Shown here in pieces: positions 1,512 through 19,428 of a DNA stretch of 21,603 nt. A program made the position numbers and the translations under genes. The stretch's first letter is position 1; every line of letters starts with the position of its first letter. The notes beneath the pieces were generated by a model. It worked only from the letters and a program-made list of their open reading frames with translations, made no database searches and was not told the DNA's origin. The stretch comes from a virus (Duplodnaviria > Heunggongvirae > Uroviricota > Caudoviricetes). The DNA lies in the IMG/VR virus record IMGVR_UViG_2778261535_000006, positions 1 to 21,603 of that record, one strand, 5' to 3'.

Positions 1512-1525
1512 TCTCGTTCTCCAGG

Positions 1526-1556
1526 CAAAAAAAAACCGCCGAAGCGGTTTTTGCTT
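1526..1556 (-). terminator. Intrinsic terminator after the moron gene, before the tape measure gene
   Basis: Stem AACCGC / GCGGTT with loop CGAA (1534..1549), flanked by an A-run (1526..1535) and a T-run (1548..1557); on the minus strand the hairpin is followed by nine U. Confidence 0.6.
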
Positions 1557-1898
1557 TTAAAGAAGCCCAGCCTTACGCCTTGCTTCTTCAAGATATTCAT
1601 CATCCGTTTTTTGCGAAACGGTACTATCAGGGTTATGTGTTAAATCACTACCGCAATGCTTACACTTAATGGCTTCTTCTTTGATCAACTCCGCACAGTA
1701 AGGGCATTTTTTCATGCCATTGCTCACCATTTGTTGCTCATGCGTTTTTTCATCTTTTTGGATTACAAGTGAATGAACCAGGGCAACGATAAAGAGTAAG
1801 GCTCCGTATATCCACCATCCCCAAAATGAACGCCCTTTACTTTGCGCGATAATAGCCGGAATTAACCCCAAGACTAGCGCAATAAGAATAACTTCCAT
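1557..1898 (-). CDS. Small membrane protein with C-terminal zinc-ribbon (CPYC...CKHC); moron-like accessory gene
   Basis: ATG at 1898 with AAGGAG 6 nt upstream; two N-terminal hydrophobic helices (VILIALVLGLIPAIIA, WIYGALLFIVALVHSLVI), then Cys-x2-Cys...Cys-x2-Cys. Inserted between the GT chaperone and tape measure genes and followed by its own terminator. Confidence 0.6.
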   Translation of the reverse strand: MEVILIALVLGLIPAIIAQSKGRSFWGWWIYGALLFIVALVHSLVIQKDEKTHEQQMVSNGMKKCPYCAELIKEEAIKCKHCGSDLTHNPDSTVSQKTDDEYLEEARRKAGLL

Positions 1899-1956
1899 CA
1901 ATATCTCCTTATTTACTTAATAAAAATCGGAATCATAATCCAGTAAAGTAAGAAGA

Positions 1957-2639
1957 TCATTGTGTCGCTGCAAATAATGCATTTTCAAACGCAGTGAACG
2001 GATCTTTAATATTATTTGCAGGAACGACCTCCCACTGAAGAATCGCTTCATTCAGTGGAACTTTGACACCCTGCGCCCCGTAAACTGCAGAAACTATCTG
2101 GGCAGCCCGGATATCAGCCCGCTCGTCACCCAGCGGGCTGATCCTGTCAAATTCTGCCCACATCATGATTTCCGATGCAGACATTTCCCGGCGTAACTCT
2201 GACAATGTGCGCCCCATCCTGAGCGCCAGCATCATCAGAAAACGAATACCCGGAAGTGCTACTTTTTTTTAATAACTTCAGCATCAGTGATCAGTTCCAG
2301 TGACTGACGAAGCAGTCGTGCATGTACCGGACCATATACTGTAAGTACCTGCTCCCGATCATCCGCTGAAAACACGGGTTGCATCCCGGTATCACACAGA
2401 ACATCGATGAACAGTTCAACATCCGCTTCAAGATTTCGGCGGGCACGCTCCGCAACTGATAACGGTGTATCATCATCTCCGGTTTTAACGATCTCCTGCC
2501 AACGTAACCAGGCTTCTGCAGAGGGTTCCCGTAATACAACCGTTGTACCTTCCCACTCAGGAACATCAACTGTTTTGTGGCGAAAACCAGACATCGTCGC
2601 CAGTGCCAGATTGCGGATATTTTTAGACATAGATTTCAT
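1957..2639 (-). CDS. Tail assembly chaperone G-T fusion product made by -1 programmed frameshift
   Basis: Heptamer A AAA AAG at minus 2268..2262, directly before the G stop codon (2261..2259). The -1 frame continues open (KKVALPGIRFLMMLALRMGR...) to the stop at 1957, the same frame as track ORF 1957..2235. Confidence 0.6.
2259..2639 (-). CDS. Tail assembly chaperone (lambda gpG-like)
   Basis: 126-aa ORF immediately downstream of the major tail gene, AAGGAGG RBS before ATG 2639, ends ...EVIKKK* on a slippery A-AAA-AAG run; position and size match G-type chaperones. Confidence 0.7.
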   Translation of the reverse strand: MKSMSKNIRNLALATMSGFRHKTVDVPEWEGTTVVLREPSAEAWLRWQEIVKTGDDDTPLSVAERARRNLEADVELFIDVLCDTGMQPVFSADDREQVLTVYGPVHARLLRQSLELITDAEVIKKK

Positions 2640-2644
2640 CCTCC

Positions 2645-3349
2645 TTAACTGACAGTTACGGTGCAGGAAGTGGAGGTCACCTTATTAACCGGGCTTGCTG
2701 AATCAGAAACCTCACAGGTATACGCACCGGCATCTCCGGATGTCACGGAGGCCTTGTTGAAAGTTGCCGATGTCTGCCCGGAAACTGGAGAGCTGCCTTT
2801 CTTCCAGACATATGAATAAGGAGGCACACCACCTGATGCCTCAACAGACATATTCAGCGTTTCACTGGCAGAAACCTGTAGTGTACTTTTCAAATCAGAG
2901 AGGAGTTTCAAAGGTTCAGTGGTCAGAGAGGGCTTTCCTTTCAGGCGCAGGGAAAATGTGGCAGCAACAACACCGTTGGTTCCCACAGACCAGGTATGCT
3001 GGCGAACTTCTGCCATAAAGGTAAATCCATTTCCTGACGGGAAAATAACTTTGAAACCGTATGTGGTGTCGTTGTCATAAGCACTACGCAACGCGTTCTG
3101 GGCAGCGTTGAGATAAAAGTTTCCTGACATGGAAATCTCTGAAGCAGCCCCAAGACCGTTGATATTCTCCTGCTCGGTAGAACACAGCGTAGTGACATCA
3201 ATATCCTGTTTCTGCCCGGCGGTAAACTGAACCTCTTTAATCGTACAGCTCAGTTCAAGAAAACTGGCAGAACTCAGCGTTTCTGCCGTTACCGGTGCAG
3301 ACGAGATCATGACTTTGGTCTGCTGAGAACGTTCAAAATTAGAGGACAT
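2645..3349 (-). CDS. Major tail protein with C-terminal Ig-like (Big_2-type) domain
   Basis: Start taken at ATG 3349 (MSSNFERS...) with GGAG 7 nt upstream rather than the track start at 3400. C-terminal ~80 aa Ser/Thr-rich with the Ig-like pattern PPYSYVWKKG...GAYTCEVSD...CTVTV. Sits between tail completion genes and the G/GT pair. Confidence 0.7.
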   Translation of the reverse strand: MSSNFERSQQTKVMISSAPVTAETLSSASFLELSCTIKEVQFTAGQKQDIDVTTLCSTEQENINGLGAASEISMSGNFYLNAAQNALRSAYDNDTTYGFKVIFPSGNGFTFMAEVRQHTWSVGTNGVVAATFSLRLKGKPSLTTEPLKLLSDLKSTLQVSASETLNMSVEASGGVPPYSYVWKKGSSPVSGQTSATFNKASVTSGDAGAYTCEVSDSASPVNKVTSTSCTVTVS

Positions 3350-3361
3350 ACTCGTCTCCTG

Positions 3362-3387
3362 AAAATAAAAAACCCGCCAGCGGCGGG
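3362..3387 (-). terminator. Terminator-like hairpin plus U-run immediately upstream of the major tail gene RBS
   Basis: Minus strand: CCCGCC-GCT-GGCGGG (3373..3387) followed by TTTTTTATTTT, then CAGGAG and ATG 3349. Confidence 0.45.
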
Positions 3388-3408
3388 TGGGTAAAATCAT
3401 TAACGACC

Positions 3409-3753
3409 TCAGGCAATTACCTGAAATTCAAGCGTAGCTCTGCTCAGACGGGAATCAGGATCATAACCCTGAGTTTTAGAAATAACGGATGGTGCCAGTT
3501 CCCTTACCGCATCAAGCGCCTGCTCACGGATATCATCTGCGTCATCAGGAGCCGTTGCCCAGATATCAATCTGCACTGTGATTCTGGATTCAGCCTGACC
3601 ATCAAGCACATCAGACGCGATGTCAGACACCACTGAAAACACCAGCCATGGTGGAAATACCGCAGGCTTTCCCTCCGTCAGCGGGACCACATAAGGATAA
3701 ACCTGCCCTCCGGCCAGTTTGGACAGAAGAGCATACAGCGTGGCTTCTCTCAT
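3409..3753 (-). CDS. Tail component, probable tail terminator / tail completion protein
   Basis: 114-aa ORF between the HK97 gp10-like gene and the major tail gene; call is by position in the head-tail joining block only. Confidence 0.45.
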   Translation of the reverse strand: MREATLYALLSKLAGGQVYPYVVPLTEGKPAVFPPWLVFSVVSDIASDVLDGQAESRITVQIDIWATAPDDADDIREQALDAVRELAPSVISKTQGYDPDSRLSRATLEFQVIA

Positions 3754-4220
3754 TTACTCAGCACCCCATCAATAGCCTGATTCATATGCTTCATGGCAAC
3801 CTGTGCTGCCAGCTCCTCTGTCATATCAAAGGCCGGGCGAATGAACGGATGGGCAGGCATATTGATAGTCCCCAGCTCCACGAAACGCCAGTAAAACGCG
3901 TTTCGCGGATCGCTGGCTTTCATGCTGTTATCACTGTTTCCGGTTCGCAGATTCCGCCCACGAATGTGGACACCAGAGATAATTTCACCACGACGCCGTG
4001 AACGCTGAGTCAGAATAACCACGTTTTTCTTCAGTTTTCCGGTTCGCTCTGGCGCATGGTCAATAACCGCCTCCCGGATAACCTCTGCTCCGGCACGGGA
4101 GGCATCGCGAAGCACCTTATTACTCTCTGCTCTGCTGAGAAGTTCCAGATCTCTTGCAATATCCGCCAGGCCAGAAAAATCCAGACTAAAATCCGTCACA
4201 TTCCACCTCTCTGGCTGCAA
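3750..4220 (-). CDS. Head-tail joining protein (HK97 gp10-like family)
   Basis: 156-aa ORF overlapping its neighbours by 4 and 25 nt; size and position fit this family. Confidence 0.5.
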   Translation of the reverse strand: MQPERWNVTDFSLDFSGLADIARDLELLSRAESNKVLRDASRAGAEVIREAVIDHAPERTGKLKKNVVILTQRSRRRGEIISGVHIRGRNLRTGNSDNSMKASDPRNAFYWRFVELGTINMPAHPFIRPAFDMTEELAAQVAMKHMNQAIDGVLSK

Positions 4221-4534
4221 AGTATTTCAAGCCTGGAGGATCGTGCGTCCGGGATCGGCGGCCCGTCGATATTCAGAATGGCTCCCTTGAATGCCCCTGT
4301 CAGCACTTTCAGACGTGAGGCGGCCGTCACATCGCGCCGAAATCGCATCCAGACTCTTACTGTTGTCTGCGCGGTTTCCGCACCGCCCGATATACGTTCC
4401 CGCCCACTGATCCCCTTAACCTCTGCCCATACCGTAGCCCCCTCTTTCAGGGTTTCCTCCGGGTGACCGGAAGGGGTACGGGAGGTCGTAATATTCAGAA
4501 TAACCACGCGATCACGTAATCTTCCTGCCTGCAT
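4196..4534 (-). CDS. Head closure / head-tail adaptor protein
   Basis: 112-aa ORF between the gp6-like connector and the gp10-like gene; positional call. Confidence 0.5.
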   Translation of the reverse strand: MQAGRLRDRVVILNITTSRTPSGHPEETLKEGATVWAEVKGISGRERISGGAETAQTTVRVWMRFRRDVTAASRLKVLTGAFKGAILNIDGPPIPDARSSRLEILCSQRGGM

Positions 4535-4543
4535 GAAATCCTC

Positions 4544-4849
4544 CTATGTTCCGGGATGAAACCGATACATTCGGAGTCCGGTATAGAAAAAATCAGGTAC
4601 AGCATCCTGCATTTCCCTGTTCTCGTACCAGTAGCCAACCAGTTGCATAAGACGCAGCTTTATCAGCGGTGTTATTACAAGCCCGGTCGTATCCTGATCA
4701 GGAACAGTTTCATCGTGAAGTGTCCGGTTTAAAAACTTTTCAGCCTCTTCTCTGGCTGCTGCCAGATACATCATAAGAAGTGCATTCTCCTGTTCATTGT
4801 CATCATCAATCCGGCACTGAACACGAAGCTCTTCCAGAGTAGGCATCAT
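4544..4849 (-). CDS. gp6-like head-tail connector protein
   Basis: N-terminus MMPTLEELRVQCRIDDDNEQENALLMMYLAAAREEAE matches the characteristic start of gp6-type connectors (LEE..K.HLRID...E..LI...AAAR.Y.E). Confidence 0.6.
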   Translation of the reverse strand: MMPTLEELRVQCRIDDDNEQENALLMMYLAAAREEAEKFLNRTLHDETVPDQDTTGLVITPLIKLRLMQLVGYWYENREMQDAVPDFFYTGLRMYRFHPGT

Positions 4850-4860
4850 TTGGGCTACCT

Positions 4861-5112
4861 CTAAGAATGCTGTTTTTTAGCCTTATCAGATACCCGTGCA
4901 ACAGGTGTTCTCTTATCAGAAACAATCCCTGCTGCAGTGGCAATTTCACGTACCCGTTCGGGTAATTCTTTATCTTCATACTCACCAGCACGAATGATCT
5001 CAACGCGCATACCGTCCGGTGACCATTTCAGATCTTGTTTCAGGATCATGATTCTTTCACCTGTCAGAACAGGGGCGCAATTCAGCGCCCCTGAGTGATT
5101 ACGCCGCTGCAA
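4861..5112 (-). CDS. Hypothetical small protein downstream of the capsid remnant (start uncertain; an internal ATG near 5049 is possible)
   Basis: ORF only, weak RBS; kept because it fills the gap between the capsid remnant and the connector gene. Confidence 0.3.
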   Translation of the reverse strand: MQRRNHSGALNCAPVLTGERIMILKQDLKWSPDGMRVEIIRAGEYEDKELPERVREIATAAGIVSDKRTPVARVSDKAKKQHS

Positions 5113-5710
5113 TCTTCAGCAGTTTGATGGCCTGCGAATCGACCAGCATGCCGCCGGTGCGCTTGGTGGTATAAAAACCGACAAACGGTTTATTGGTGTA
5201 CGGGTCGCGCAGAATGCGGGTGCCGATACGGTCAACGATGGTGTAACCCCGTTTGAAGTTACCAAATGCAATAGCTTTCGCATCCGCAGCGATATCCGGC
5301 ATCTGCTCGTTTTCAGCGATACCGTAACCCGCCAGAGAGGACGGTTGCCCCAGTTCCAGCCCCGGACGCCACAGATAATTACCCTCGGTGTCTTTCAGCA
5401 GACGGATGGCAAACAGGCTGTTGTTGTTCATCATGAACTTCGCACCAGTGCGGTGTGCCTTACGCAGCGTGTAAATCAGTTTGATAACGGCGTCTGCGGT
5501 CACCGTCGTCGCTTCGCCGGATACAATATGCTGAAGTTTGCCGAACGCACGAACATTATCGGTTTCATCGGTGGATTCATACGCCAGGAACCCTTTCGGC
5601 TTCTTGGTACCATCGCCGGTGGTAAAGGCAATTTCTTCCTGTTCGGCAAATTCGGTTGCCAGCTCGCTGTTGATCCAGGCTTCCACGTTGAAAAAGGCAT
5701 CATCCAGCAT
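5099..5710 (-). pseudogene. Major capsid protein (HK97 fold), C-terminal ~200 codons only
   Basis: Begins mid-protein at the HK97-family motif E.EE.AF..GDG..KP.GFL ([21 protein letters not shown]) and ends ...FVGFYTTKRTGGMLVDSQAIKLLKIAAA. Upstream in this frame is terminase DNA read out of frame, so the N-terminal half of the capsid protein is absent. Confidence 0.6.
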
Positions 5711-7416
5711 TTTCTGGGTGGCCTGCGGTCTTCTTTCTCGTACAGCATGGCTCTGCCAACCGCCATAATCAGCGCAACTGCACCATCGATTTTGTTTTCC
5801 GCCTGCTCTTTGACGGGCTTCACCACATCATCGTTACCCGGAATGGTTTTGCCGACCACGTTGCCGATACACCAGGTCATGATGGGATTGCCATCATGAT
5901 GAAAGCGCCCCGATTCAATTGCCGCTTCCAGCTCTTTCATCGGGTCGGACATGTTGGTGTAGTTCTGAATGATAGTGATGGGGTTCAGGTCTTCATCAGC
6001 AAGGTCATGTGACAACCCGGTCGCCCCGAAGGGGTCGATGGGTGACTCACTGACCGGGCTGATTTTGTTCGCCGCTTTGGCCTCCTCGAGGATGTAGCGA
6101 TAATCCACCTCCGCACCATCGGTAACGGTCAGAACGCCCATTTCCACCCATTTCTGAAAGCGTTCGGCTGTCCGTCGATCTTCATTTTTCTCGACGCTGT
6201 ACACCGTGTCATACGGTACCCAGAAACGCGGGGCCACACTGTAGTAATGCGTTTTACCGTCAATCTCGCGGGTATAAAGTCGCGCCATGCTGTTCATATC
6301 CAGCTTACGCGCCAGGTCAAAGGCCAGAATGCACGGCTGCCCCTCGAACTGCTCAAGGGTCAGTGATTTATCCTCGCAGCTCTGCCAGCTCACCAGGTTG
6401 AAATACGCCGAACGCGCCGACACCCAGATATTGAGGTGTTTTGTTTTAAAGACGTTTGCCAGACGGGCGTTATTTTTCGCACGCTGCTGCTGACTTAACA
6501 AAAATTCGCGATAAACCGACACGCCAATATTCGGGTTAGCTTTTTCCAGCACCTGCGGGTCGGTCCAGTCATCGCCTTCGTCAACGGTATAGATGATCCC
6601 GAACAGTTCATCGTTGGGTACCGACCCGTTGAGCATCTCGATAACTTCCCGTCGCTTGTCGTAGCACGGCCCCTCAATGTTGTACCCGGCAGTAGTAATG
6701 GCCCACATCAGTGGCTGACGTCGCGCCCCCATCCCGGTAAGCATCGTGGTGTAAAGCGCATCGGTGGCGTGCTCGTGATATTCATCCACCACCGCACAGT
6801 GGGGTGATGAACCATCACCGGGGTTACCGATCAGCGGTTCAAACCGCGCGCCATCCTCCGGACGATTCATGTTTGAGGCGTTAACCTCAATCCCGAACGC
6901 TTCCGTCAGCATGGGTGTGCGTTTACACATCAGTCTTGCCGGACGAAAGACTTCCCATGCCTGTTTCTCCGTCGTGGCACCGGAATACACTTCCGCGCCG
7001 AACTCGTTATCACAGGCAAAACAATACAGGGCGACACCGGCAGAGATTGCTGATTTGCCGTTCTTACGGGGGATTTCGGTATACACCTCCCGGAAGCGGC
7101 GCAGCCGGGAGCCTTTATTGACCCAGCCAAACGCGCAGCAGATCACAAAGAGCTGCCACGGCTCCAGCGTGATGGGCATCCTCTTGAATGCCCACTCACC
7201 CTTGGTGTGCGGCAACAGCTGAATAAATTTGGCGGCCCGTTCAGCCAGGTCCTTGTCGAAGCGGTAACGAAACGACTTACTTTTTTCCGCCATCAGGTCA
7301 TCAAGATGGCGCTGGCAGGCCTGAATCACAAACTGGCAGGCCACAATCTTTCCGCGCACAACATCACGGGCATACTGATTGGCAGCATTTACGTTGGGGT
7401 AAGATTTCCGGCTCAT
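5500..7416 (-). CDS. Terminase large subunit; 3' end is abnormal and reads out of frame ~70 codons into the capsid remnant
   Basis: 638-aa ORF, ATGA overlap with the small terminase stop. Terminase-like through ...[22 protein letters not shown], then low-complexity Pro/Arg/Trp-rich text ([19 protein letters not shown]...) that is capsid DNA in the wrong frame. Confidence 0.8.
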
Positions 7417-7907
7417 GATTCGATAATTTTCAGAAACGGGTTAGTGGCTTTCTTCTGCCCCGCCAGGCCAATCAGACGCTGGCGGCTGCTGGGGTCGAGT
7501 CCGAGCATTGCCCCCGTACTGCTCATCTCGGACTCCTGTTCTTTTTTGGCGGTCAGCTCCGGATTTTTGACCATGCCGCCCATTGCACCGGTGATGGTGT
7601 TGCCCTGTCTGGCAATATTTTTCACAGCACGTCGCCAGAACTCATAGGCTACGCACCACCGCTCAAGCACTGCGAGGTCAGTCACGCACAGCAGGCCCTG
7701 ACCGCAGAGTTCTTTGGTTGTCAGTTGCCACATGATCGTGGCGAGAGGGAGCTCTTCTTCAGCGAACCACTCCGGTGGCTCAACACCTTTGATGGGCGTA
7801 AAAACGGGTTCATCTTTGTTCAGGGCTCGCTTGCCGGGGTTTCCGGCCAGCGCCTTGCGCGCCGTTGGCTTGGGGCGACGCCCGGAACGCCCCGCCGTTC
7901 CAGCCAT
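7413..7907 (-). CDS. Terminase small subunit (P27-like family)
   Basis: Start taken at ATG 7907 ([18 protein letters not shown]...) with AGGAG 9 nt upstream; stop overlaps the large terminase start; downstream of HNH. Confidence 0.65.
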
Positions 7908-7957
7908 ATGCGGCACTCCTGGTTAAATTTCATTTTTCGCGGGTATATAAAAACGAT

Positions 7958-8006
7958 GGGGCGGGCAGTCCTGAAGGCGTCAGGTCACAGAGATTTGACC
8001 CGCCCC
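7958..8006. repeat. GC-rich nested palindrome between HNH and small terminase genes; candidate cos site or terminator
   Basis: GGGGCGGG (7958..7965) and CCCGCCCC (7999..8006) are perfect inverted repeats enclosing the inner palindrome CCTGA-aggcg-TCAGG (7970..7984). On the minus strand it is followed by a U-rich tract. Confidence 0.35.
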
Positions 8007-8032
8007 TCCCCTCTGGCAGTGGGAACTGGTTC

Positions 8033-8383
8033 TTACTTCAGCCGTTCACGAGCCGTTTTCGCCTTATGACACGGCCAGCACAGGCTCTGCAGATTGCTGT
8101 CTGAATCTGTGCCGCCATGCGCTTTAGGAATGATGTGGTCAACGGTTTTCGCCTCACGCACCACACCAGCACGCAGACATAACTGACATAAACCTTTGTC
8201 ACGCTTCAGGACGCGCACGCGGATACCATCCCACTTCGAACCATAACCGCGCTGATGACGGGATTGTCCTGGCTTGTATTGCTTCCAGCCTTCACTTTTG
8301 TGGCTTTCGCAATAGCCTGACGGGTCAGTTGTGGTATGGCGGCAGCCGCGAACACGGCAGGCTTTTGGGGTTCGTGGTGGCAT
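8033..8383 (-). CDS. HNH endonuclease (terminase-associated)
   Basis: Start taken at ATG 8383 (MPPRTPKACRVRGC...) with GGAG 7 nt upstream. Cys-rich with HNH motif ...VDHIIPKAHGGTDSDSNLQSLCWPCH; located just upstream of the terminase genes. Confidence 0.8.
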   Translation of the reverse strand: MPPRTPKACRVRGCRHTTTDPSGYCESHKSEGWKQYKPGQSRHQRGYGSKWDGIRVRVLKRDKGLCQLCLRAGVVREAKTVDHIIPKAHGGTDSDSNLQSLCWPCHKAKTARERLK

Positions 8384-8392
8384 GCTGGCTCC

Positions 8393-8418
8393 AATAAAAA
8401 GCCCCGCGACGCGAGGCT
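8393..8418 (-). terminator. Intrinsic terminator-like hairpin after the small membrane protein gene
   Basis: Minus strand: GCCUCGC-guc-GCGGGGC stem followed by UUUUUAUU, immediately before the HNH RBS. Confidence 0.4.
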
Positions 8419-8448
8419 TAGACAGAAAAAACACCGGATAAGATCTGG

Positions 8449-8652
8449 TCATTCTTCCTTTTTAATAATGACTTCTCGAGGGCGCAATTGTTGGATAGCA
8501 CGACAAATACAATATGGAATAACTGCCCATGCTACTCCCATTGCTGCACCTGCAGCCTGTTGTGGAGCACTCTGAGCACCGAAAACCCCGAGGATTCCTT
8601 CAATAAATCCAATAGCACTACACAAAAGACTGATGACCCAGAGAATTTTCAT
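8449..8652 (-). CDS. Small hydrophobic membrane protein, function unknown
   Basis: ATG 8652 with AGGAG ~9 nt upstream; 67 aa with two hydrophobic segments (ILWVISLLCSAIGFIEGILGVFGA, AAMGVAWAVIPYCICRAI). Confidence 0.5.
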   Translation of the reverse strand: MKILWVISLLCSAIGFIEGILGVFGAQSAPQQAAGAAMGVAWAVIPYCICRAIQQLRPREVIIKKEE

Positions 8653-8769
8653 AAACCCAAACTCCTTTTAAATAAACACATTACTAGGATAATTCTCATA
8701 AAATGTTAGTAAAGTATTTTCAGGAAAATAGCGTATCACTGCCTATTTTTGACACTGATGCTGGGATAA

Positions 8770-9195
8770 TTATTCCGGTCGCTGGAGTTGCTCATGATGA
8801 TACAGAGCGAGAATCAGGTCATAAGACCCTTGCCTGTCTTTGTAACCAGTTTTATCAACCAATTCAGCTTTACTGATTCCGGGTAAATCAAGAATCAGAT
8901 TCGCAACTTCAATTGCCCTTTGGTACAACTTACCGCCCTTTTTCTCCCCATGCACTGGTTTTACATTCTTGAGGTAACCGCTATCCGCCAGGGCGAGAAA
9001 TGTTGCCCTTGGGCATATCTTCTTTCTTGACGATTCGCTTTCTGTAACCTCTGCGACAGCTGCATCCCATGCATCACGAGGAGTCATTGAGCTATCAGCC
9101 ACCAAATGATAAGCGATTAAAGCAGCGTGAGCGTATTGAGACATAATGCATCCATATACAAAAATCTTATGATAAGACTTTTCTAATATGAACAC
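8770..9195 (-). CDS. Hypothetical protein (start ambiguous: track start 9195 or internal ATG 9144)
   Basis: ORF directly downstream of Rz/Rz1 in the lambda bor position; no motif I can name. Confidence 0.45.
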
Positions 9196-9626
9196 TGTGA
9201 TCTCACATACTCTTGCAGGCCATTCAATTGGTTAGTTATGGTTTCGATGCGCTCTCTGAGAACGAAATAATCCCGTTGAGCGGTGTCAGTAAGTCTGGGG
9301 CTGGAAGCATCATCCACGCCGGAGGCGGCGGTGGTTTTATGCATGTCGGGACAGACTGCTTTGACGTGCAGCCACTTACGACCAGCAGAAACATCAGCAC
9401 GAAGACTTTCGATAGTCGCGTTAGCATCAGCAAGCTCCTTTGTATATCTGGCATCGAGTTCAGCTACATTACGTTGACGTTTCTGCATGTCAGCGATAAT
9501 GGATGCGGCCTTATCGCGCTGTTCTTTGTAGGCGATGGCGTTATCACGGTAATGATTAACAGCCCATGACAGGCAGGCGATGATACAAATAACCAGAGCG
9601 GAGATAATCGCAGTTACTCTGCTCAT
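9183..9626 (-). CDS. Rz: Rz i-spanin
   Basis: [39 protein letters not shown]...[19 protein letters not shown] closely matches lambda Rz as I recall it; N-terminal TM helix plus coiled coil; follows the endolysin gene. Confidence 0.9.
9236..9427 (-). CDS. Rz1: Rz1 o-spanin lipoprotein, embedded in the +1 frame of Rz
   Basis: Signal peptide and lipobox ([13 protein letters not shown]), proline-rich [10 protein letters not shown] and ...TPLNGIIS, matching lambda Rz1; start taken at internal Met (MLTRLSK...) rather than the track start. Confidence 0.8.
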
Positions 9627-10099
9627 ACCTCAATCTCACTGACCGTTCCGCCAGCTTCTTTGAATTTTGCAATCAGGCTGTCAGCCTTATGCTCGAACTG
9701 ACCATAACCAGCGCCCGGCAGTGAAGCCCAGATATTGCTGCAACGGTCGATAGCCTGACGAATATCACCGCGATCAATCATCGGTAAAGCGCCACGCTCT
9801 TTAATCTGCTGCAGTGCAACAGCGTCCTGGCTTTTCGGAGAGAAGTCTTTCAGCCCTAGCTGCTTGCGGTAGGCATCCCACCAACGGGAAAGAAGCTGGT
9901 AACGTCCAGCTGCAGTTGATTTAAGTTGCGGGTTTAGCGTGACAAGTTTGCGAGGGTGATCGGAGTAATCAGTGAAGAGTTCGCCACCGACAATAACGTC
10001 ATAACCGTGATTGCGGGTTGGCTGCCGTCCGTTATCCGTTCCTTCTGACCACGCCAACATATCGAGGAAAGCTTTACGCTGAGGATTAAGATTTTGCAT
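9623..10099 (-). CDS. R: Endolysin, lambda R-type lytic transglycosylase
   Basis: ...[50 protein letters not shown]... is nearly identical to lambda R as I recall it. Confidence 0.9.
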
Positions 10100-10403
10100 T
10101 TTTCACCCCTGTCAGTCGTTCCCAGAAGTACGTCAGTGCAACCGAACCCATCGCACCACTAATCCCCGCCGTCGCGAGAATCATGTAAATGCTGAATCCA
10201 CTTTCGATACTGATCAGGCCACCAATAACACCGGTGAATCCCGATACCACTATCTGAGCCAGAGCATTTATCCAGCTCCACGTTGCTTTACTCTGCTTCA
10301 CATCTATCAGGTAGCGGACCAGACCGCCCCAACCTGCGATGATCAGCAAAACGAGCCAGAACGCTCCGGCAAGGCTCTCTTTTTCGTGCATATGAATAGC
10401 CAA
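10086..10403 (-). CDS. Holin (three predicted TM segments, not lambda S-type)
   Basis: 105 aa, three hydrophobic segments, charged C-terminus, immediately upstream of and overlapping the endolysin gene; Met1 and Met5 (MAIHMHEKE) could form a holin/antiholin dual start. Confidence 0.65.
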   Translation of the reverse strand: MAIHMHEKESLAGAFWLVLLIIAGWGGLVRYLIDVKQSKATWSWINALAQIVVSGFTGVIGGLISIESGFSIYMILATAGISGAMGSVALTYFWERLTGVKNAKS

Positions 10404-10505
10404 TGTTTCGCCGCCGACAAAAGGCCGGGACGTTAAATGTCAGAAATCAGGCTCACGGGGTAATTTAACGACAAAGCACGGAGTTGATGCTCCCCACAAG
10501 CCTGG

Positions 10506-10531
10506 AATAAAAAAGCCAGCATGTAACTGGC
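10506..10531 (-). terminator. Intrinsic terminator in the Q-holin intergenic region (tR'-like)
   Basis: Minus strand: GCCAG-uuacau-GCUGGC followed by UUUUUUAUU. Confidence 0.55.
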
Positions 10532-10608
10532 AACAGAGGGTTAAGCAATATCAACTCAACAGCTGAAGACACCCTGGCTGGGGTAGGTTGGAAGGCTACT
10601 AACCGTCC

Positions 10609-10644
10609 AGAAACAGAAAAGCCCAAAGTTTTAAACCTCGGGCT
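10609..10644 (-). terminator. Second hairpin plus U-rich tract in the Q-holin intergenic region
   Basis: Minus strand: AGCCCGAGG-uuuaaaa-CUUUGGGCU (two G-U pairs) followed by UUUCUGUUUCU; pairing is better on the minus than the plus strand. Confidence 0.35.
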
Positions 10645-10712
10645 TGAATTTGGATTACTGCCAGTGCGTACAACATTGGCAAAATATCAGATTTACACGA
10701 AATATATGCTTT

Positions 10713-11402
10713 TTAATCCAGTTTTGCAATACTTTGCTGTGAAAATGTGGTCTTTTGTTTTGAACGTGTTTTCGTTAAAAGCAATAAAGCTTGGCTATCA
10801 AGCTGTAGAAAAATGTGCTTCATTGCAACCCAGCGTTCAGTAAATGTCTCAGACCAGTTTTTTGATGTCACTCCCACCAGTAATGCCAGCTCCTGGTATT
10901 CATAGGTCTTACGCCCTGCCAGCTCGTTCTTCACATCCTGTGCCGCCAACCAGATCAACTTCTTTAAGCGCTCCAGTGTCTTACTGGCAATTTTTCTTGT
11001 ACCTAACAGCGCCTTAAACTCGCTCCATGCCCACTGCGTTATGGCAACCTGATGCTCCCAGCGAATATTTTCACTGTAACTCCACAGCAACCACGCTTTC
11101 TGATGTTCATCGAGAGACAAAATCGCACGCCGCCACGAAGAGGTTGAAAACTCGACCGAACTGACCAGGGTGACAGATGAACCTTTTGCGTAGGACTGTT
11201 TACCGGAAATCGGCGGATTATCCAGCGTAATCATCTTGCCAGTTACCACATCCAGAATGCGCGGCTTCTTTCGTTTGTATGTACCAGTATCAAATTGTGC
11301 ATGCTCCAGCCAGGCTTCAAGCTGGCCTTTCATTGCTCCGCTCAAATCAGCGGTAGCCACCATGAGTTGCTCGCGGACATACTGTAAATATTGGGTATTC
11401 AT
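10713..11402 (-). CDS. Putative late-gene antiterminator (Q-like, not lambda Q-type)
   Basis: 229-aa ORF between rusA and the lysis cassette, followed by a ~310-bp non-coding region carrying terminator hairpins, as in the lambda Q-pR'-tR'-S arrangement. Call is positional; the sequence does not resemble lambda Q. Confidence 0.45.
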   Translation of the reverse strand: MNTQYLQYVREQLMVATADLSGAMKGQLEAWLEHAQFDTGTYKRKKPRILDVVTGKMITLDNPPISGKQSYAKGSSVTLVSSVEFSTSSWRRAILSLDEHQKAWLLWSYSENIRWEHQVAITQWAWSEFKALLGTRKIASKTLERLKKLIWLAAQDVKNELAGRKTYEYQELALLVGVTSKNWSETFTERWVAMKHIFLQLDSQALLLLTKTRSKQKTTFSQQSIAKLD

Positions 11403-11535
11403 GCGGCAGCTCCTTTCAGTGTTTTGGCGTAATTCCTCAGTATTCGGTAATCGGTCAAAACAGAACCGGGGAAACGATATAAGCGCAGGCGCATCCAGCA
11501 GTGGCGAAGAAGCTCTGCCATATAAAACTCAAACA

Positions 11536-11898
11536 TCATTCATCTCCCAGTTCAGTGATGGTCAGCTCCAGCTTTCCACCTTTGGTAACGGGCATCTTCA
11601 CAACGCGATAATCAACGACCTGAGCATCATCCAGCCAAAAACCTGCCTTAGTTAGTGCGTCAAAAGCGGCTTTTTGCAGATTATCCAGGTCACGGCGACG
11701 GCGATCCGGCATGTGGCACTCAATACGGATTTTCACAGGCATAGCCAGGCCGATATCCAGCATTGAGCCTTTAATGATTCGGGCGACGTTATCGCGGTAT
11801 GCCTGCCCTTCTGCGCTGATGTGCGTGCGCCCTCGATTATGGCGGTAGTAGCGGTTATTGCTCGGCGGCCAGGGTAGTGTGATGTGGTAAGTATTCAC
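11536..11898 (-). CDS. rusA: Holliday junction resolvase RusA
   Basis: [38 protein letters not shown]...[28 protein letters not shown] matches E. coli DLP12 RusA as I recall it; GTG start overlapping the upstream stop. Confidence 0.9.
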
Positions 11899-12185
11899 GC
11901 CTTAATTACCCCCTCTTTCAGCCAGATAACCTGCGTTCTCGCCATACCTTCCAGCGCGCATTCTTTTGCATATCCAGCGTCAACAAAATGCGTGCGACGG
12001 TCGATCTCGTCGTGACAGTCAGAACATGCAATGGTGGCAATAAGGTCTGGCGGTTTAATACCGGTGCCGCACAATCCAGCCAGCCGGATATGTGCCAGTA
12101 CAGACGTTTCAGGATTGCCATTACATACGCCAGGGATTCTTACCTGGCATTCCCGACCACGCGCTGCTTTTCTCAAATCAGCCAT
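11895..12185 (-). CDS. YbcO-like Cys-rich putative nuclease (DUF1364-type)
   Basis: Start taken at ATG 12185 ([32 protein letters not shown]...) with AGGAGG RBS; resembles DLP12 YbcO; Cys/His-rich. Confidence 0.75.
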
Positions 12186-12348
12186 GATTCCTCCTTGCTG
12201 CCAGTCGCAACCATTTTTTATCAACCAGGCTGGCGGTATATCCGAGCAGTGTTGGTATTTCGGATGGCTTCAGCTCAGGTTTACGCTTACGACGATTTGG
12301 TACTCTGTAGATGTGTCCGTTCATGACACGAATAAGCGGTGTAGCCAT
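12178..12348 (-). CDS. ninE: NinE-family protein (56 aa); absent from the ORF track
   Basis: Minus-strand frame ATG 12348 to stop at 12180..12178: [56 protein letters not shown]. Basic, with the W-L-R-L motif of NinE proteins; GGAGG RBS; overlaps the ybcO-like start. Confidence 0.7.
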   Translation of the reverse strand: MATPLIRVMNGHIYRVPNRRKRKPELKPSEIPTLLGYTASLVDKKWLRLAARRNHG

Positions 12349-12803
12349 TACGCCTCCTGCTTGTCGCGCAGCAGCTGGAACTCGCAGCTCTGCGGAATAG
12401 TCAGGTGGCAGCCAATATTCATCGCCCAGGCTTCAACCTTACACAGGAAGACATACATCTCTCCGGTATCAAGATTGGAGGTATGGCGTAACGACTGGAT
12501 AGTAGTAATTTCGCCGGTTACGACATCAACCAGGTCCTTGGTTTCATAACCGAGGTATGTGTGTTTGAGAGCATCTTTAACCCATGCTGCAGTAGCGAAC
12601 GATTTCCCCCTGCTTATGAGGTATTCACTGATTTCGCTGTACCACATGTGGCTAAGTGCATTCTGGGAAAGACTGCGTCTCTCGCGCCACGGTTTAAGCA
12701 CCATGCGAAAGCATTTGCCGTCCTCCAGATAAGGCTGGATCTGCTGACCGATAGCGGTGAAGTTACCGCGATGCAATTTGATACCGTCTTGTGGGAGGTT
12801 CAC
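12348..12803 (-). CDS. ninB: NinB (Orf-family recombination mediator)
   Basis: GTG start with GGAGGTGAAG RBS; [15 protein letters not shown] parallels the lambda NinB RNRSLDQNRKLWA region; nin-region synteny. Confidence 0.75.
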
Positions 12804-12986
12804 GCTTCACCTCCGCAGAGGTCAAACGCAAGATGCAAAGAATCACAGGTGCATTTTTGCATCTGTGAGGGGAGAAGAGAGTTTAGATTGTATGTGCGCA
12901 TAAACGTCCCCGTTTAGCGCAGAAGTCACCGGAGTTGTTCAGGCTCCGATGACATGATTATGGCGAGTTGATTATGGAAAATCAAA

Positions 12987-13190
12987 TTAGTACAAATCAC
13001 CACTGAAGCGTAAATTTTCCAGTTTGTTACGGTGAAAATTGATTTGCTGTGCGATAAAACTTAATCTTTCATGCCCGCTTTCTCCTTGCGAAATCTCAGT
13101 CTCTCTCCGTACTAGATCATCTAGTTGACGCTCATGATCTTCAATTTTTTTTCCTTCCCAATACTTCACGTAAGATTCAAAATCATCCAT
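12987..13190 (-). CDS. Hypothetical small acidic protein (67 aa)
   Basis: ATG 13190 preceded by a strong SD (AGAGGGGGTGA); not lambda-like; lies in a non-lambda insert between ren and ninB. Confidence 0.5.
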   Translation of the reverse strand: MDDFESYVKYWEGKKIEDHERQLDDLVRRETEISQGESGHERLSFIAQQINFHRNKLENLRFSGDLY

Positions 13191-13348
13191 TACTTCACCC
13201 CCTCTTATTTTTAGATATTTTCAAACCCAACAAACCACCTGCAGTGCGTTTGTCAGGCGAGTAAGTGGGGCAGCTTTAAAGTACTAGAATGTTTCATAAA
13301 GACATCCGACTTAACAATGTTCATGGCGCTACTAACTCTCGCACCAGT

Positions 13349-16564: not shown

Positions 16565-16595
16565 TATCAATTCCTATTGGTATTACAATGAATGA

Positions 16596-16624
16596 ATAAT
16601 AGCAATGCGTATTAACCATGGCAA
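16596..16624 (-). promoter_or_regulatory. Putative pR (early rightward-equivalent promoter driving the cro-like operon)
   Basis: Minus strand: -35 TTGCCA (16624..16619), 17-nt spacer, -10 TATTAT (16601..16596), ~30 nt upstream of the cro-like start; overlapped by a palindromic operator candidate. Confidence 0.5.
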
Positions 16625-16662
16625 TAGCAAAACGTGTTTTGACCATCAATACGCAAGCGTAT
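16598..16662. promoter_or_regulatory. OR-like operator cluster between the cro-like and repressor genes
   Basis: Imperfect palindromes TAATAGCAATGCGTATTA (16598..16615) and ATACGCAAGCGTAT (16649..16662) plus AATAGCAA at 16623..16630; the same AATAGCAAT motif recurs at the OL-like site. Confidence 0.4.
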
Positions 16663-16674
16663 AAATTAAAACTT

Positions 16675-17367
16675 ATGAAAAAAGAAACTCTTGCTGATCG
16701 CTTAAACCTAGCGATGGAACAATCTGGGATGTCTCAAGGCGCTCTTGCAAAGGCGTCTGGCGTAGCTCAACCCACAATCTGGAGACTGACAAGCGGCAAC
16801 GCGCGCGGCTCAACAAAAATTGTTGAAATAGCTAATGCATTGGGTGTTCGAACAGAGTGGCTCTCATCAGGCATAGGCCCGATGAGAAATGACGGTCAAC
16901 AATCAGGGAAGCCTACTGTCAACCATTCCAAATACTTCAAGATTGACGTTCTTGATATAGAAGTGAGTGCCGGGCCGGGAGTCATCAACCGTGAGTTTGT
17001 AGAAGTCCTACGCTCGGTTGAGTACTCGTTTGACGATGCTCGTCACATGTTCGATGGCAGGAAGGCGGAAAATATCCGCATCATTAACGTGCGTGGTGAC
17101 AGCATGTCAGGAACGATCGAACCAGGTGATCTGCTGTTCGTTGATATCACGGTTAAATCTTTCGACGGTGATGGCATCTATGCGTTTCTGTACGACGACA
17201 CCGCCCATGTAAAGCGCCTGCAAATGATGAAGGATAAGCTGCTGGTTATCTCTGATAACAAGAGCTACTCACCGTGGGACCCGATCGAGAAAGACGAGAT
17301 GAACCGGGTGTTCATCTTCGGTAAGGTTATTGGGAGCATGCCCCAGACGTACAGGAAACATGGATAA
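16675..17367 (+). CDS. CI-like prophage repressor (N-terminal HTH, C-terminal S24 LexA-like autopeptidase)
   Basis: HTH MSQGALAKASGVAQPTIWRL; peptidase motifs GDSM (Ser) and HVKRLQ (Lys). Start uncertain: ATG 16675 (MKKETLADRL...) has no SD and may be leaderless, whereas the track start 16618 lies inside the putative pR -35. Confidence 0.8.
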   Translation: MKKETLADRLNLAMEQSGMSQGALAKASGVAQPTIWRLTSGNARGSTKIVEIANALGVRTEWLSSGIGPMRNDGQQSGKPTVNHSKYFKIDVLDIEVSAGPGVINREFVEVLRSVEYSFDDARHMFDGRKAENIRIINVRGDSMSGTIEPGDLLFVDITVKSFDGDGIYAFLYDDTAHVKRLQMMKDKLLVISDNKSYSPWDPIEKDEMNRVFIFGKVIGSMPQTYRKHG

Positions 17368-17433
17368 TCAGTACTGTGCTGATGAGTCGTTTAGGGGATA
17401 GTAAATTTAATTAGAATTAGACGAGAGCGATTT

Positions 17434-18297
17434 ATGGATTGTGACGCTTTACAGGATATAAAAATCTCTCTTAGGTATGACGGAAAAGATGCTTTAAATC
17501 ATGAAATAGATTTGAACTGCCTAGGAGAATCCCTAAAGGGTTTTTCTAAAGTTCTCTCAACAGCAGCTTCTTTCTCTGTTACACAAAAATATAGTAAATA
17601 CATTAATTATCAGGAAGTTAAGGTTTACGCACGCGAAGCAAAAGCTAACTGCTTTACTCTTGAAGCAGTTCTTAACTTCGCCACTCAGAACCAGTTGTTC
17701 TCGGGGATCGCCGCAACTATACTTGGCGCAATACTACAATATATTTTTGCGAGAAATTCTAACAAGAAAGATGAAATGAAAGCTTTGCAGCAGTCACTTG
17801 AAAAGGCCATAGAGGCACTAGGAAACAAGGATGCTGGAACCATTGATAAGTTGATCTCTTTGATTGACCGAATGGCTGTAGAGCTTCGCCCCTCTGTAAG
17901 GCAGGCAGTATCACCTATTGGTAATACTTGCGATCAGATAAGTGTTGCAACAAATGTTGACGGCTGCCTTCTAAAAGTTAACGAGAGAGATAAAGCTGAA
18001 ATTGATAGGCTTGATGATGATGAAGTTCTCGGTCTTCGTGAGTATCGTGCTTTTCTTACAGAATTTGATGCACAAAATATGACAGCTAAAATAATTTTAG
18101 ATGGTGATGACTCAAAAAAGAGAATCACTGCTGAAATTAGCGATCCAGCTGCAGGAAAGAAGAATAACCCGTATATTAGAGCTCTTAGTGCATATATATC
18201 AACCAAAGGTGATCCATCTGCAGTATTCACTATAACCGCAAAGGCTACTGTTAAAAAAGGCCAGATAAACAGGTTATTTATTGTAGATGCGAAATGA
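17434..18297 (+). CDS. Hypothetical 287-aa protein, AT-rich, in the rexAB position downstream of the repressor
   Basis: Clean ORF with its own terminator; one central hydrophobic segment ([19 protein letters not shown]) followed by a predicted helical Lys/Glu-rich region; no motif I recognise. Spot counts on three 60-nt lines give 40%, 42% and 28% GC. Confidence 0.7.
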
Positions 18298-18301
18298 TTT
18301 C

Positions 18302-18328
18302 CCCGGCCGTCGTGCCGGGTTTTCTTTT
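18302..18328 (+). terminator. Intrinsic terminator ending the repressor operon
   Basis: CCCGGC-cgtcgt-GCCGGG followed by TTTTCTTTT, 5 nt after the stop codon of the 287-aa gene. Confidence 0.65.
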
Positions 18329-18450
18329 GCCTCCCCTCATCACACACCGTTCAAAAAACCACCATAACCCCCGCTTCAGTTATCGCTATGCGATGCAAGT
18401 CACAAAATTAATTCCTTTTGCTATCAAACAGTTAATATCAAAATGCATCA

Positions 18451-18496
18451 ATCAATAGCAATAAGTATTGATATCACTAATAGCAATAGCTATTAT
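18451..18496 (+). promoter_or_regulatory. Putative pL with OL-like operators
   Basis: -35 TTGATA (18468..18473), 17-nt spacer, -10 TATTAT (18491..18496). Palindromes TAATAGC-aata-GCTATTA (18478..18495) and ATCAATA-gcaataag-TATTGAT (18451..18472) overlap the promoter. Confidence 0.5.
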
Positions 18497-18773
18497 CACC
18501 ATGTCGCAACAACACAACGATACGGCAACCACCTGATTCGCCGTTGCGATGACCGCTTAGATCCGCAGCTTGAATTTCAGCAGGCTCCGGGGAGTGCGAG
18601 GGGTGAAGCGGACGCGTGAACGTCGGTGTGACCAGCTGAAATCAACTCAACACTTCATACCTCAGTCGCTTCAACGAGGCGGCTTAGTTATGACAACCGG
18701 CGGCCATCCACCGCCTGAATACGCGCAGAAGTCTCTATATGTTCAGCAGCCCAGCTTACGGGCAGGAGTTTTT

Positions 18774-18980
18774 ATGGTTCATCAACATTACGGAACTCAG
18801 ACCGTTAATCGCGGTGCCGTCCGGCCAGGTATGCTGGTTAAACACAAAGATGGTACCTGGACGGCATCAGCTAATTTGCGCGGTCGGCTTTACTTGCATC
18901 GCGGCATCGAACGAACGTACACAAAAGATTTGCTCGTGGAGGTTTACCTGAATGGTACTGGCGGTGGTCTGAGCCACTAA
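18774..18980 (+). CDS. Hypothetical 68-aa protein; the frame is open back to a TTG at 18570 with an Arg-rich N-terminus
   Basis: ATG 18774 has a strong RBS (GCAGGAG, 6 nt). The upstream in-frame extension encodes RLRGVRGVKRTRERR, reminiscent of an N-type arginine-rich motif, but the start codon is unproven. Confidence 0.35.
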   Translation: MVHQHYGTQTVNRGAVRPGMLVKHKDGTWTASANLRGRLYLHRGIERTYTKDLLVEVYLNGTGGGLSH

Positions 18981-18984
18981 CTAC

Positions 18985-19291
18985 TCACTTGTTTGGGCCG
19001 TGTGGAGCCAAAGCAAATTCAAGGTTGTAGATACTCCCATCAGGGGCTTTGAAATCAACCTCAAACCGAGATGGCGGATTGAATGGATCGAGTACATTTT
19101 CTGCTACGCATGTAGATCTCCAATTGATATGGCCTTTGCCAAGCGAGCGAGATTCCCACCAAGCTCTCCAGGTCTGGTCTTGCGGTTGATCACTCCCCTT
19201 TTCCCTTACATACCAATGATTCTTTTTCGACTGCTTACCCATTTCTGCGGTTGGGTACATCGGAGAAGACTTTAACTTATCAATCAGCATT
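18985..19291 (-). CDS. Hypothetical Trp-rich protein (~101 aa) antisense to the pL operon
   Basis: ATG 19291 with AAGGTG 7 nt upstream; reads more like a protein than the overlapping plus-strand ORF 19000..19275; no family recognised. Confidence 0.4.
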
Positions 19292-19428
19292 CTAGACACC
19301 TTATTTATCAGATTTTGAGCAAGACATAGTGTGATCCAACATTTTGATTAATCAAGCGAGTTCATTCAAACAACTATGCAGTTAACGCACTGTCTGGATC
19401 CGCACATCAAAATTTCAGGAGTTTATCC

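Follow-up and report, generated by a model that had tools for sequence, protein, structure and literature searches.

A repressor-linked DUF7946/DUF7947 gene in the immunity region of a lambdoid prophage is a candidate phage-defence gene

This study concerns a gene for a 287-amino-acid (aa) protein that lies directly after the CI-like repressor gene in the immunity region of a lambdoid prophage. The DNA that was analysed is a stretch of 21,603 nucleotides (nt) (IMG/VR record IMGVR_UViG_2778261535_000006, positions 1 to 21,603; Caudoviricetes), and the whole of this stretch is referred to below as the window. On sequence comparison, the protein was assigned to the group formed by the DUF7946/DUF7947 family and gene 40A of phage phi80, and not to RexA, RexB, SieB, PDC-S42 or LAPAL. 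The chances are judged to be about even that this is a prophage cargo gene which is expressed together with the repressor and defends the lysogen against other phages, with an OB domain that binds a ligand and a DUF7946 part that provides the output. The support for a defence role is circumstantial and of four kinds, namely the linkage of the gene to repressors, the variable cargo of the slot in which it lies, a relative within an island of type I restriction-modification (R-M) and Kiwa genes, and the exclusion of phage T4 by phi80 lysogens. The family is uncharacterised and is structurally unlike any solved defence protein; the kind of element to which it would belong, exclusion or defence cargo of an immunity region, is well known.

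Results

The first-pass annotation of this DNA had described the gene as unrecognised and the C-terminal domain of its product as lacking any assignable motif, and both descriptions had to be given up. Pfam DUF7946 (PF25678) matched residues 11-191 of the protein over positions 1-183 of a 183-position model (187.2 bits, cutoff 27), and DUF7947 (PF25679), which corresponds to an OB fold in the structural model described below, matched residues 201-287 over positions 2-79 of 79 (67.1 bits, cutoff 27). The protein was matched over its full length by phrog_5147 (function not annotated; E 1.5e-178), and it was 100% identical to RefSeq WP_000340376.1, which has been published as a predicted defence gene. 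A tblastn search of phage records identified gene 40A of phi80 (PHI80_46, AFV29182.1) as a homologue, with 62% identity at 99% coverage (E 2e-114). When 1.84 billion representative proteins were searched with a profile, 497 relatives were found at E <= 1e-3 (99 of these at E <= 1e-30), and almost all were 270-320 aa in length and carried both DUF7946 and DUF7947. Homologues were present in Klebsiella, Enterobacter, Serratia, Raoultella, Citrobacter, Proteus, Providencia, Morganella, Neisseria, Vitreoscilla and one Helicobacter prophage. A region of 1,151 bp was present at full length, with ~99-100% DNA identity, in 77 of the 5,426 complete E. coli genomes, and the E. coli copies of the gene are annotated as 'hypothetical' or as 'DUF7946 domain-containing protein'. 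A literature search for DUF7946/DUF7947 found no paper.

The phi80 gene 40A resembles the window gene in the length of its product (288 aa compared with 287 aa), in its Pfam architecture of DUF7946 followed by DUF7947, in its slot (the order pRM, cI, 40A, OL/pL and N on one strand) and in the hairpin and T-run terminator that directly follow its stop codon. It differs in being accompanied by another repressor and other operators, and in the gap between cI and the gene, which is 136 bp in phi80 and 66 bp in the window. The distance from the terminator to OL is also ~300 bp longer in phi80, and the interval contains an unannotated open reading frame (ORF) of 69 aa on the minus strand (L001 4898..5107, minus in locus orientation), which is convergent with 40A and for an equivalent of which the window has no room. 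The 1988 phi80 sequence X13065 divides the gene into two ORFs, 40A and 40B. The label 'acetate kinase superfamily domain' that phi80 40A carries in GenBank was rejected, as a Pfam search does not reproduce it.

In the annotation of lambda, the interval between cI and OL is occupied by rexA and rexB, and the proposal that the window gene lies in the rexAB slot is supported by the lambda and phi80 annotations alike. The window gene shares with rexA and rexB its position 3' of cI and before OL, and its expression in lysogens is presumed. At the level of the proteins, however, the hhalign probability was 0.1% for RexA and for RexB, with no Pfam or PADLOC match to either, and whereas RexAB are the products of two genes and include a multi-pass channel, the window has one ORF with at most one borderline hydrophobic helix. 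No P22 SieB-type family was present among the Pfam matches (E up to 1) or the PADLOC matches of the protein. The lack of likeness to RexA, RexB and SieB that had been noted in the first pass was thus confirmed; the gene may act as a repressor-linked exclusion system in the manner of Rex, but this is an analogy of position only.

Tables S5 and S10 of the DefensePredictor study (DeWeirdt, Mahoney, Laub, Science 2026, PMC13092281) include WP_000340376.1 under the label 'Predicted novel defense gene', with mean log-odds of 6.28 and 7.45 compared with a strict cutoff of 4. A weak N-terminal match to the PADLOC profile PDC-S42 was also observed (residues 9-127 aligned to profile positions 4-113 of 302; E 1.5e-4, 19.3 bits), and the same profile was matched by 21 of 57 family members, with a best E of 2.4e-6. 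PDC-S42 is a single-gene computational candidate with which only the N-terminal ~115 residues are shared; the C-terminal part was unaligned, there was no full-length match, and a literature search for PDC-S42 found no publication. HepS, Tab and SNIPE are not related to this protein. In phi80 lysogens, wild-type T4 does not plate (complete exclusion), the plating of P1 is reduced, and lambda plates normally (PMC2885432).

The genomic neighbourhood of the family was surveyed in IMG/VR, where 73 loci encoding relatives were collected and the proteins encoded upstream were clustered at 80% identity. A CI-type repressor was the direct upstream neighbour in 67 of the 73 loci, always on the same strand; 56 loci had an S24 repressor (G[DNHQ]SM motif) and 11 had a ~130-aa Phage_CI_repr/HTH_3 repressor, while another neighbour or none was found in the remaining 6. 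Because 23 of the 26 clusters of upstream proteins were repressors, the gene accompanies many immunity specificities. The linkage was also seen in Vitreoscilla (where a PDC-S25/ThsA-like SIR2 protein is encoded next), in Morganella and with a relative of 36% identity. The gene lay elsewhere in two Neisseria-like loci and in the Helicobacter prophage, where its neighbours were anti-repressor/KilA-N genes, genes for helix-turn-helix (HTH) regulators and unannotated ORFs, with no structural genes among them.

A distant member with both domains was found within a type I R-M operon on metagenome contig Ga0620611_005650 (L091 987..10542), in which the gene order is HsdM, PD-Lambda-3_A-like, HsdS, PIN_12, DUF7946/7947, KwaA, KwaB and HsdR. 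The R-M operon is here interrupted by a defence island. There is a 4-bp overlap between the PIN_12 gene and the start of the DUF7946 gene on this contig, and in this lineage the two may form one unit. Taken over all loci, the associations with known defence genes comprise this R-M/Kiwa island, the SIR2/PDC-S25 neighbour, and the slot that is shared with rexAB and with PDC-M11 (see below). Two further distant members adjoin IS1595 transposases, each with a conserved overlapping ORF of 56 aa. This ORF encodes a basic product (MITLKEAIKNRKLNQFIKERKE...; L092 5900..6070 and L094 1458..1628) and overlaps the 3' end of the IS1595-associated gene by 4 bp; it had no match in PADLOC, and it could be either a partner protein or part of the insertion sequence. 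A 54-aa ORF that overlaps the stop codon of the gene in the window (18294..18458) was rejected as a partner gene, since it reads across both the terminator and the operators, and it shows no relationship to the 56-aa ORFs of the distant homologues.

The slot between cI and OL was compared with that of other lambdoid phages by megablast. These phages share with the window the 3' end of cI and, separately, the DNA from ~18300 rightward, which includes the terminator and OL (90-95% identity), but they do not share the ORF; the junction at ~18300 was seen in Perceval, PhiR30_1, Lambda_4C10 and others. The slot is occupied by the PADLOC candidate PDC-M11A/B in Lambda_4C10, 4A7, D2, 1W and 3W (PDC-M11B is an ASCH-domain protein), it holds an unannotated two-gene cassette for a 340-aa protein and a 168-aa transmembrane protein in phage Perceval (L087 1444..2994), and it is empty in PhiR34_1. 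The PDC-M11A/B and Perceval cassettes have the same insertion point as the window gene and the same 90-95% identical terminator/OL DNA to their right, but they encode unrelated proteins in a two-gene layout. As the flanks are shared and the cargo differs or is missing, the segment 17368..18301 behaves like a cassette that can be exchanged, within a hotspot for cargo. Neither of the two Perceval proteins had a Pfam or PADLOC match, and this cassette is another uncharacterised, Rex-like arrangement.

A closely related prophage of E. coli 23CRST032 (L003 4711..5640) with the same immunity region also carries emrE, ybcK and a gene for a protein with a BstA C-terminal domain. BstA is a known prophage abortive-infection family, and the presence of this protein points to defence cargo distributed over several slots of these DLP12-like prophages.

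The window contains a lambdoid early region in an orientation that is inverted relative to lambda, with the O/P replication genes, a cII-like gene and a cro-like gene on the minus strand, and the CI-like repressor, the ORF, gam, bet and exo on the plus strand (Table 1). As had been reported in the first pass, the ORF immediately follows the repressor gene on the same strand; the gap is 66 bp, and an identical spacing was found in 30 IMG/VR loci. A consensus scan of this spacer found neither a promoter nor a terminator. Clusters of the AATAGCAAT motif were present only at 16570..16631 (OR side) and 18454..18494 (OL side), and because they flank the ORF on both sides, the ORF is placed inside the immunity region. 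The promoter upstream of the repressor gene is predicted to act as pRM. Its transcript would begin at about the ATG at 16675, which is also the start that PGAP gives for the repressor (annotated as an XRE family regulator), and the cI message would be leaderless, as it is in lambda. The start of the longer cI ORF at 16618 would fall upstream of this predicted transcript.

The terminator of the cI-ORF unit begins 4 bp after the stop codon of the ORF, and consists of a hairpin with six GC pairs (-13.9 kcal/mol for the extended hairpin, z = -2.4). The gene had been described as closed by its own strong terminator before OL/pL, and a terminator is indeed present there. It is better described as belonging to the slot than to the gene, since other lambdoid phages with different cargo have 90-95% identical DNA from ~18300 onwards.

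A Shine-Dalgarno-like GAGAG lies 6 nt 5' of the ATG of the ORF, and the position of the start methionine is common to all homologues. Compared with homologues of 87-91% identity, the ratio of nonsynonymous to synonymous substitution rates (dN/dS) was ~0.05 at a dS of ~0.9, and was low in every part of the protein. Given this ratio and the 497 relatives in the profile search, the gene is real and under strong purifying selection. Segments of 300 bp over the ORF had a G+C content (GC) of 0.37-0.42, compared with ~0.50 in the flanking DNA, in agreement with the earlier remark that the ORF is visibly richer in AT than its neighbours. For the whole ORF, the GC and the GC at third codon positions (GC3) were 0.384 and 0.296, compared with 0.478 and 0.526 for cI, 0.522 and 0.575 for bet, and 0.525 and 0.628 for exo. 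This foreign composition, the mosaic junctions at the 3' end of cI and at the terminator, and the 23 different repressor clusters found upstream all support a cassette-like horizontal movement of the gene; a horizontal acquisition had also been suggested in the first pass.

An AlphaFold model built from 25 close homologues was mediocre, with a predicted local distance difference test score (pLDDT) of 75, but the model built from 57 diverse members was confident (pLDDT 91.5, predicted template modelling score (pTM) 0.80) and formed a single globule. In the N-terminal part of this model, a strand (9-16) is followed by a long helix (27-50) and two further strands (62-66 and 75-82). The middle part has helices at 87-108, 112-128 and 134-150, a hairpin at 168-183 and a helix at 184-192. 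The C-terminal part is a five-stranded beta-barrel that superimposes on known OB folds. The model combines an alpha/beta domain that is novel with a three-helix bundle and, at the C terminus, an OB fold. A Foldseek search of the PDB gave nothing at E <= 0.001, and the best match of a profile search against PDB sequences (E 0.022, to a coiled segment) was not meaningful. An OB fold accompanied by no recognisable enzyme domain is easier to reconcile with a binder or sensor than with a metabolic enzyme.

Conservation among the 57 diverse members was highest at a small number of positions. In the N-terminal/DUF7946 region these were G17 (conserved in 55 members), H23 (49), S33 (54), G36 (55), P161 (in all 57) and G163 (50), and in the OB domain they were D237 (56), P238 (53), N245 (50), Y247 (56) and K270 (49). 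The pattern in the OB domain points to a conserved binding site, predicted to be formed by the five residues D237, P238, N245, Y247 and K270.

Table 1. Position of the gene, of its domains and of the control elements around it in the window
Feature	Position	Strand	Remarks
OR-side operator cluster, AATAGCAAT-type half-sites	16570..16631		Motif search
pRM-like promoter (predicted)	16639..16667	+	TTGACC, 17 nt spacer, TAAATT; 9/12 matches in consensus scan
CI-like repressor gene, HTH_3 and Peptidase_S24	16675..17367 (longest ORF from 16618)	+	Pfam Peptidase_S24 E 1.6e-18, HTH_3 E 1.5e-6
Spacer between cI and ORF, 66 bp	17368..17433	+	Contains GAGAG Shine-Dalgarno-like motif
287-aa gene, DUF7946 and DUF7947	17434..18297	+	ATG start, 287 codons and stop; protein identical to WP_000340376.1
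DUF7946 region	17464..18006 (aa 11-191)	+	Alpha/beta with inserted three-helix bundle, aa 87-150 (model)
Hydrophobic Gly/Ala-rich helix	17692..17757 (aa 87-108)	+	Borderline as transmembrane segment
C-terminal OB-fold beta-barrel (model)	18022..18294 (aa 197-287)	+	Pfam DUF7947, aa 201-287
Intrinsic terminator of cI-ORF unit	18302..18329	+	Stem CCCGGC/GCCGGG at 18302..18319, then TTTTCTTTTG
OL operator cluster and pL-like promoter	18454..18496	+	Promoter 18468..18496; TTGATA, 17 nt spacer, TATTAT; 10/12 matches

Elsewhere in the prophage, the ORF for the terminase large subunit (5500..7416, minus strand, 638 aa) overlaps the capsid ORF (5099..5710, minus strand). The capsid ORF matches only positions 86-280 of Pfam Phage_capsid, and no portal or protease gene is present between terminase and capsid. 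This arrangement resembles the outcome of an internal deletion, so that the prophage, in which cI and the DUF7946 gene are intact, may be defective. Collinearity with E. coli UMB200201_11 (NZ_CP049343.1) is confined to the part of the window from ~13.3 kb rightward; the left arm (1..13300), with the lysis and packaging genes, differs, so that the same immunity region and cargo occur on different prophage backbones. Downstream of pL, a long ORF on the plus strand (18570..18980) has an arginine-rich segment, VKRTRERRCDQLK, near its N terminus, which is reminiscent of the arginine-rich motifs of N proteins, and PGAP annotates only the last 68 codons of this ORF. An ORF of 104 aa without a Pfam match lies on the minus strand at 18985..19299, inside the leftward operon.

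Discussion

The gene had been put forward in the first pass as a candidate exclusion or defence gene, and as a candidate it is supported by the DefensePredictor listing, the weak similarity to PDC-S42, the relative in the R-M/Kiwa island and the T4 exclusion by phi80 lysogens. Several observations weigh against a defence role. The accession, contig and sequence of WP_000340376.1 are absent from tables S6-S8 of the DefensePredictor study, which cover the 94 tested units, and of these units 42 (45%) were validated while over half gave no protection (PMC13092281). DefensePredictor and PADLOC both make partial use of genomic context, and their predictions are thus not fully independent of the argument from synteny. 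No gene is assigned to the exclusion of T4 in the report on phi80 lysogens (PMC2885432), our literature searches, which covered phi80 40A, phi80 defence and the exclusion of T4 by phi80 lysogens, found no paper that assigns one, and none was found that links the 287-aa gene or phi80 40A to a phenotype. With regard to the protein, no effector domain (nuclease, NADase, kinase or channel) was found. A catalytic triad of D/E16, H23 and C/S73 was considered and rejected, as the combination is present in only ~70% of the diverse members; a disulfide or metal site formed by Cys73 and Cys166 was also rejected, as the two Cys positions do not co-vary, and for these reasons no active site is proposed. 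The uniformly low dN/dS, which extends to the OB domain, is not usually what is seen in an arms-race sensor. A membrane effector in particular is weakened by the finding that a Kyte-Doolittle value of 1.6 in the hydrophobic helix is reached in only 19 of the 57 members.

If the gene does defend the lysogen, the following sequence of events may be envisaged. The gene would be co-transcribed with cI in lysogens, from the pRM-like promoter to the terminator at 18302, since neither type of element was detected in the spacer that separates the two genes. The lysogen would then be protected by a single-protein system that is rexAB-like in its role and unrelated in its protein. The polar patch on the OB fold (D237, P238, N245, Y247 and K270) might bind a ligand associated with infection, either a single-stranded nucleic acid or a phage protein. 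Binding would be relayed to the DUF7946 module, which could act as an oligomerising or blocking element, or could expose the hydrophobic helix of the bundle to act on the membrane. As a result, the infection would be abortive or phage development would be blocked directly, and the 40A family may in this way be linked to the exclusion of T4 and P1 by phi80 lysogens. A more specific version was also considered, in which the family represents a new, non-enzymatic type of single-protein abortive infection: the conserved pocket of the OB domain would sense a ligand made by the phage (single-stranded DNA (ssDNA), RNA or a protein), the buried hydrophobic helix of an 'inside-out' three-helix bundle would be freed to oligomerise in the membrane and depolarise it, and 40A would cause the complete T4 exclusion and the partial P1 exclusion of phi80. 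This version is regarded as having a small chance of being correct.

The nature of the hydrophobic helix is central to the question of whether the protein might instead be a constitutively membrane-anchored superinfection-exclusion protein. In such a protein, helix 88-106 would cross the inner membrane, where the coiled region and the OB domain, on the cytoplasmic side, would intercept incoming phage DNA or ejection proteins, as with P22 SieA, T4 Imm and SNIPE, and no abortive infection would be triggered. A hydrophobic helix with a Lys/Glu-rich helical stretch after it had been reported in the first pass, and this part of the report stands, with a Kyte-Doolittle mean of 1.85 over the 19 residues 88-106 and Lys/Glu-rich helices following. 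An anchor would also suit the distribution of Lys and Arg around the helix (0 in the 10 residues before it and 4 in the 10 after it, with a similar bias of 0-2 before and 2-4 after in most members that have a hydrophobic helix), the stripe of small residues S90/G91, A94/T95 and G98, which resembles helix-helix packing motifs, the weak composition-level matches to holin-type PHROGs, and the complete block of T4 by phi80 lysogens on which lambda plates normally. Under the positive-inside rule, however, this distribution would require the N-terminal domain to be periplasmic, although its 86 residues include 21 charged ones and it lacks a signal peptide. A borderline value of +1.6 kcal/mol was obtained for the helix as a position-independent sum on the Hessa scale. 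The helix of distant homologues is amphipathic and charged; many of them carry Lys, Glu or Arg in the aligned helix (for example AGREIGKRAIEATVNFILT and LLLKLANKALAKLLEFIFA), and only 19 of the 57 members reach the hydrophobicity given above. In the confident single-globule model (pTM 0.80), the helix appears to be one of three that are packed in a bundle, and this helical region matches three-helix miniproteins. A membrane anchor is thus doubtful as a reading of the segment, and constitutive membrane-anchored exclusion is considered unlikely. On the grounds of the Hessa-scale value, the charged relatives, a topology that would need export of the N terminus and the confident globular model, we lean moderately towards the helix being the core of the bundle, unusually hydrophobic in the enterobacterial clade; it is possibly latent and membrane-active, and probably not a constitutive anchor.

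The tight and wide linkage to repressors, most of them of the RecA-cleavable S24 type (56 of 73 loci), would equally be expected of an accessory to the lysis-lysogeny switch, in which the OB-fold protein tunes induction or repressor stability through ssDNA, RecA filaments or a host protease. Binding of ssDNA is common among OB folds, the strong purifying selection gives no sign of arms-race diversification, and unusually high spontaneous phage titres are reported for phi80 lysogens (PMC2885432). However, the gene is also found 3' of CI-type repressors that are not of the S24 type (11 loci), and without any repressor in the R-M/Kiwa island, beside IS1595 and, downstream of a portal gene, among accessory genes; closely related immunity regions function with other cargo or none, and the composition of the gene is foreign. 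A switch accessory is accordingly held to be unlikely too, ranking only marginally ahead of the membrane anchor. The foreign GC, the place in the lysogenic transcript and the terminator would also be shared by a moron that serves lysogenic conversion or host fitness in a way unrelated to phages (stress tolerance, surface or metabolic), for which the intact state of the gene in a prophage that looks defective, and its copies of at least 99% identity in 77 complete E. coli genomes, could be cited. This is decidedly unlikely, since the protein has no signal peptide, the Pfam and NCBIfam searches found no enzyme domain or virulence-family match, the neighbours outside phages are defence genes and not metabolic or virulence genes, and the defence-predictor score is high. 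A selfish element of the addiction or toxin kind, which would stabilise the prophage and be restrained by the repressor or by a host factor, might likewise be a single conserved gene inside the immunity region, and the IS1595 association of distant relatives with a small overlapping downstream ORF, together with the 4-bp PIN_12 overlap in one island, would agree with it; as no toxin domain was found, no cognate antitoxin-like partner is present in the window, and many phages of the same type are without the gene, it is very unlikely. A role of the protein in virion structure or morphogenesis, with its gene misplaced among the early genes, is barely credible. NCBIfam NF053583 (LAPAL_fam, 'putative phage structural protein') was matched at 26.2 bits compared with a curated cutoff of 60 (E 4.7e-6), with residues 11-121 aligned to positions 1-116 of a 292-position model; the protein is therefore not a member, and the match is limited to the N-terminal 115 residues, with the C-terminal part unmatched. 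The homologues near portal/terminase genes in the two Neisseria-like loci and the Helicobacter prophage have the regulatory and unannotated neighbours described above, not head or tail genes, and the gene follows a repressor in 67 of 73 loci and lies, in the window, upstream of pL in a unit closed by a terminator.

Conclusions

The reading of the gene as repressor-linked defence cargo would, if validated, add an unrelated, enzyme-less fold to the prophage defences that are linked to repressors. The phi80 40A family offers a direct test of the unexplained exclusion phenotype of phi80, and as the family is compact (~280 aa), strongly constrained and well modelled, mutational and structural follow-up should be straightforward. 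Should the gene prove not to be defensive, it would still be a conserved, repressor-linked gene of lambdoid immunity regions.

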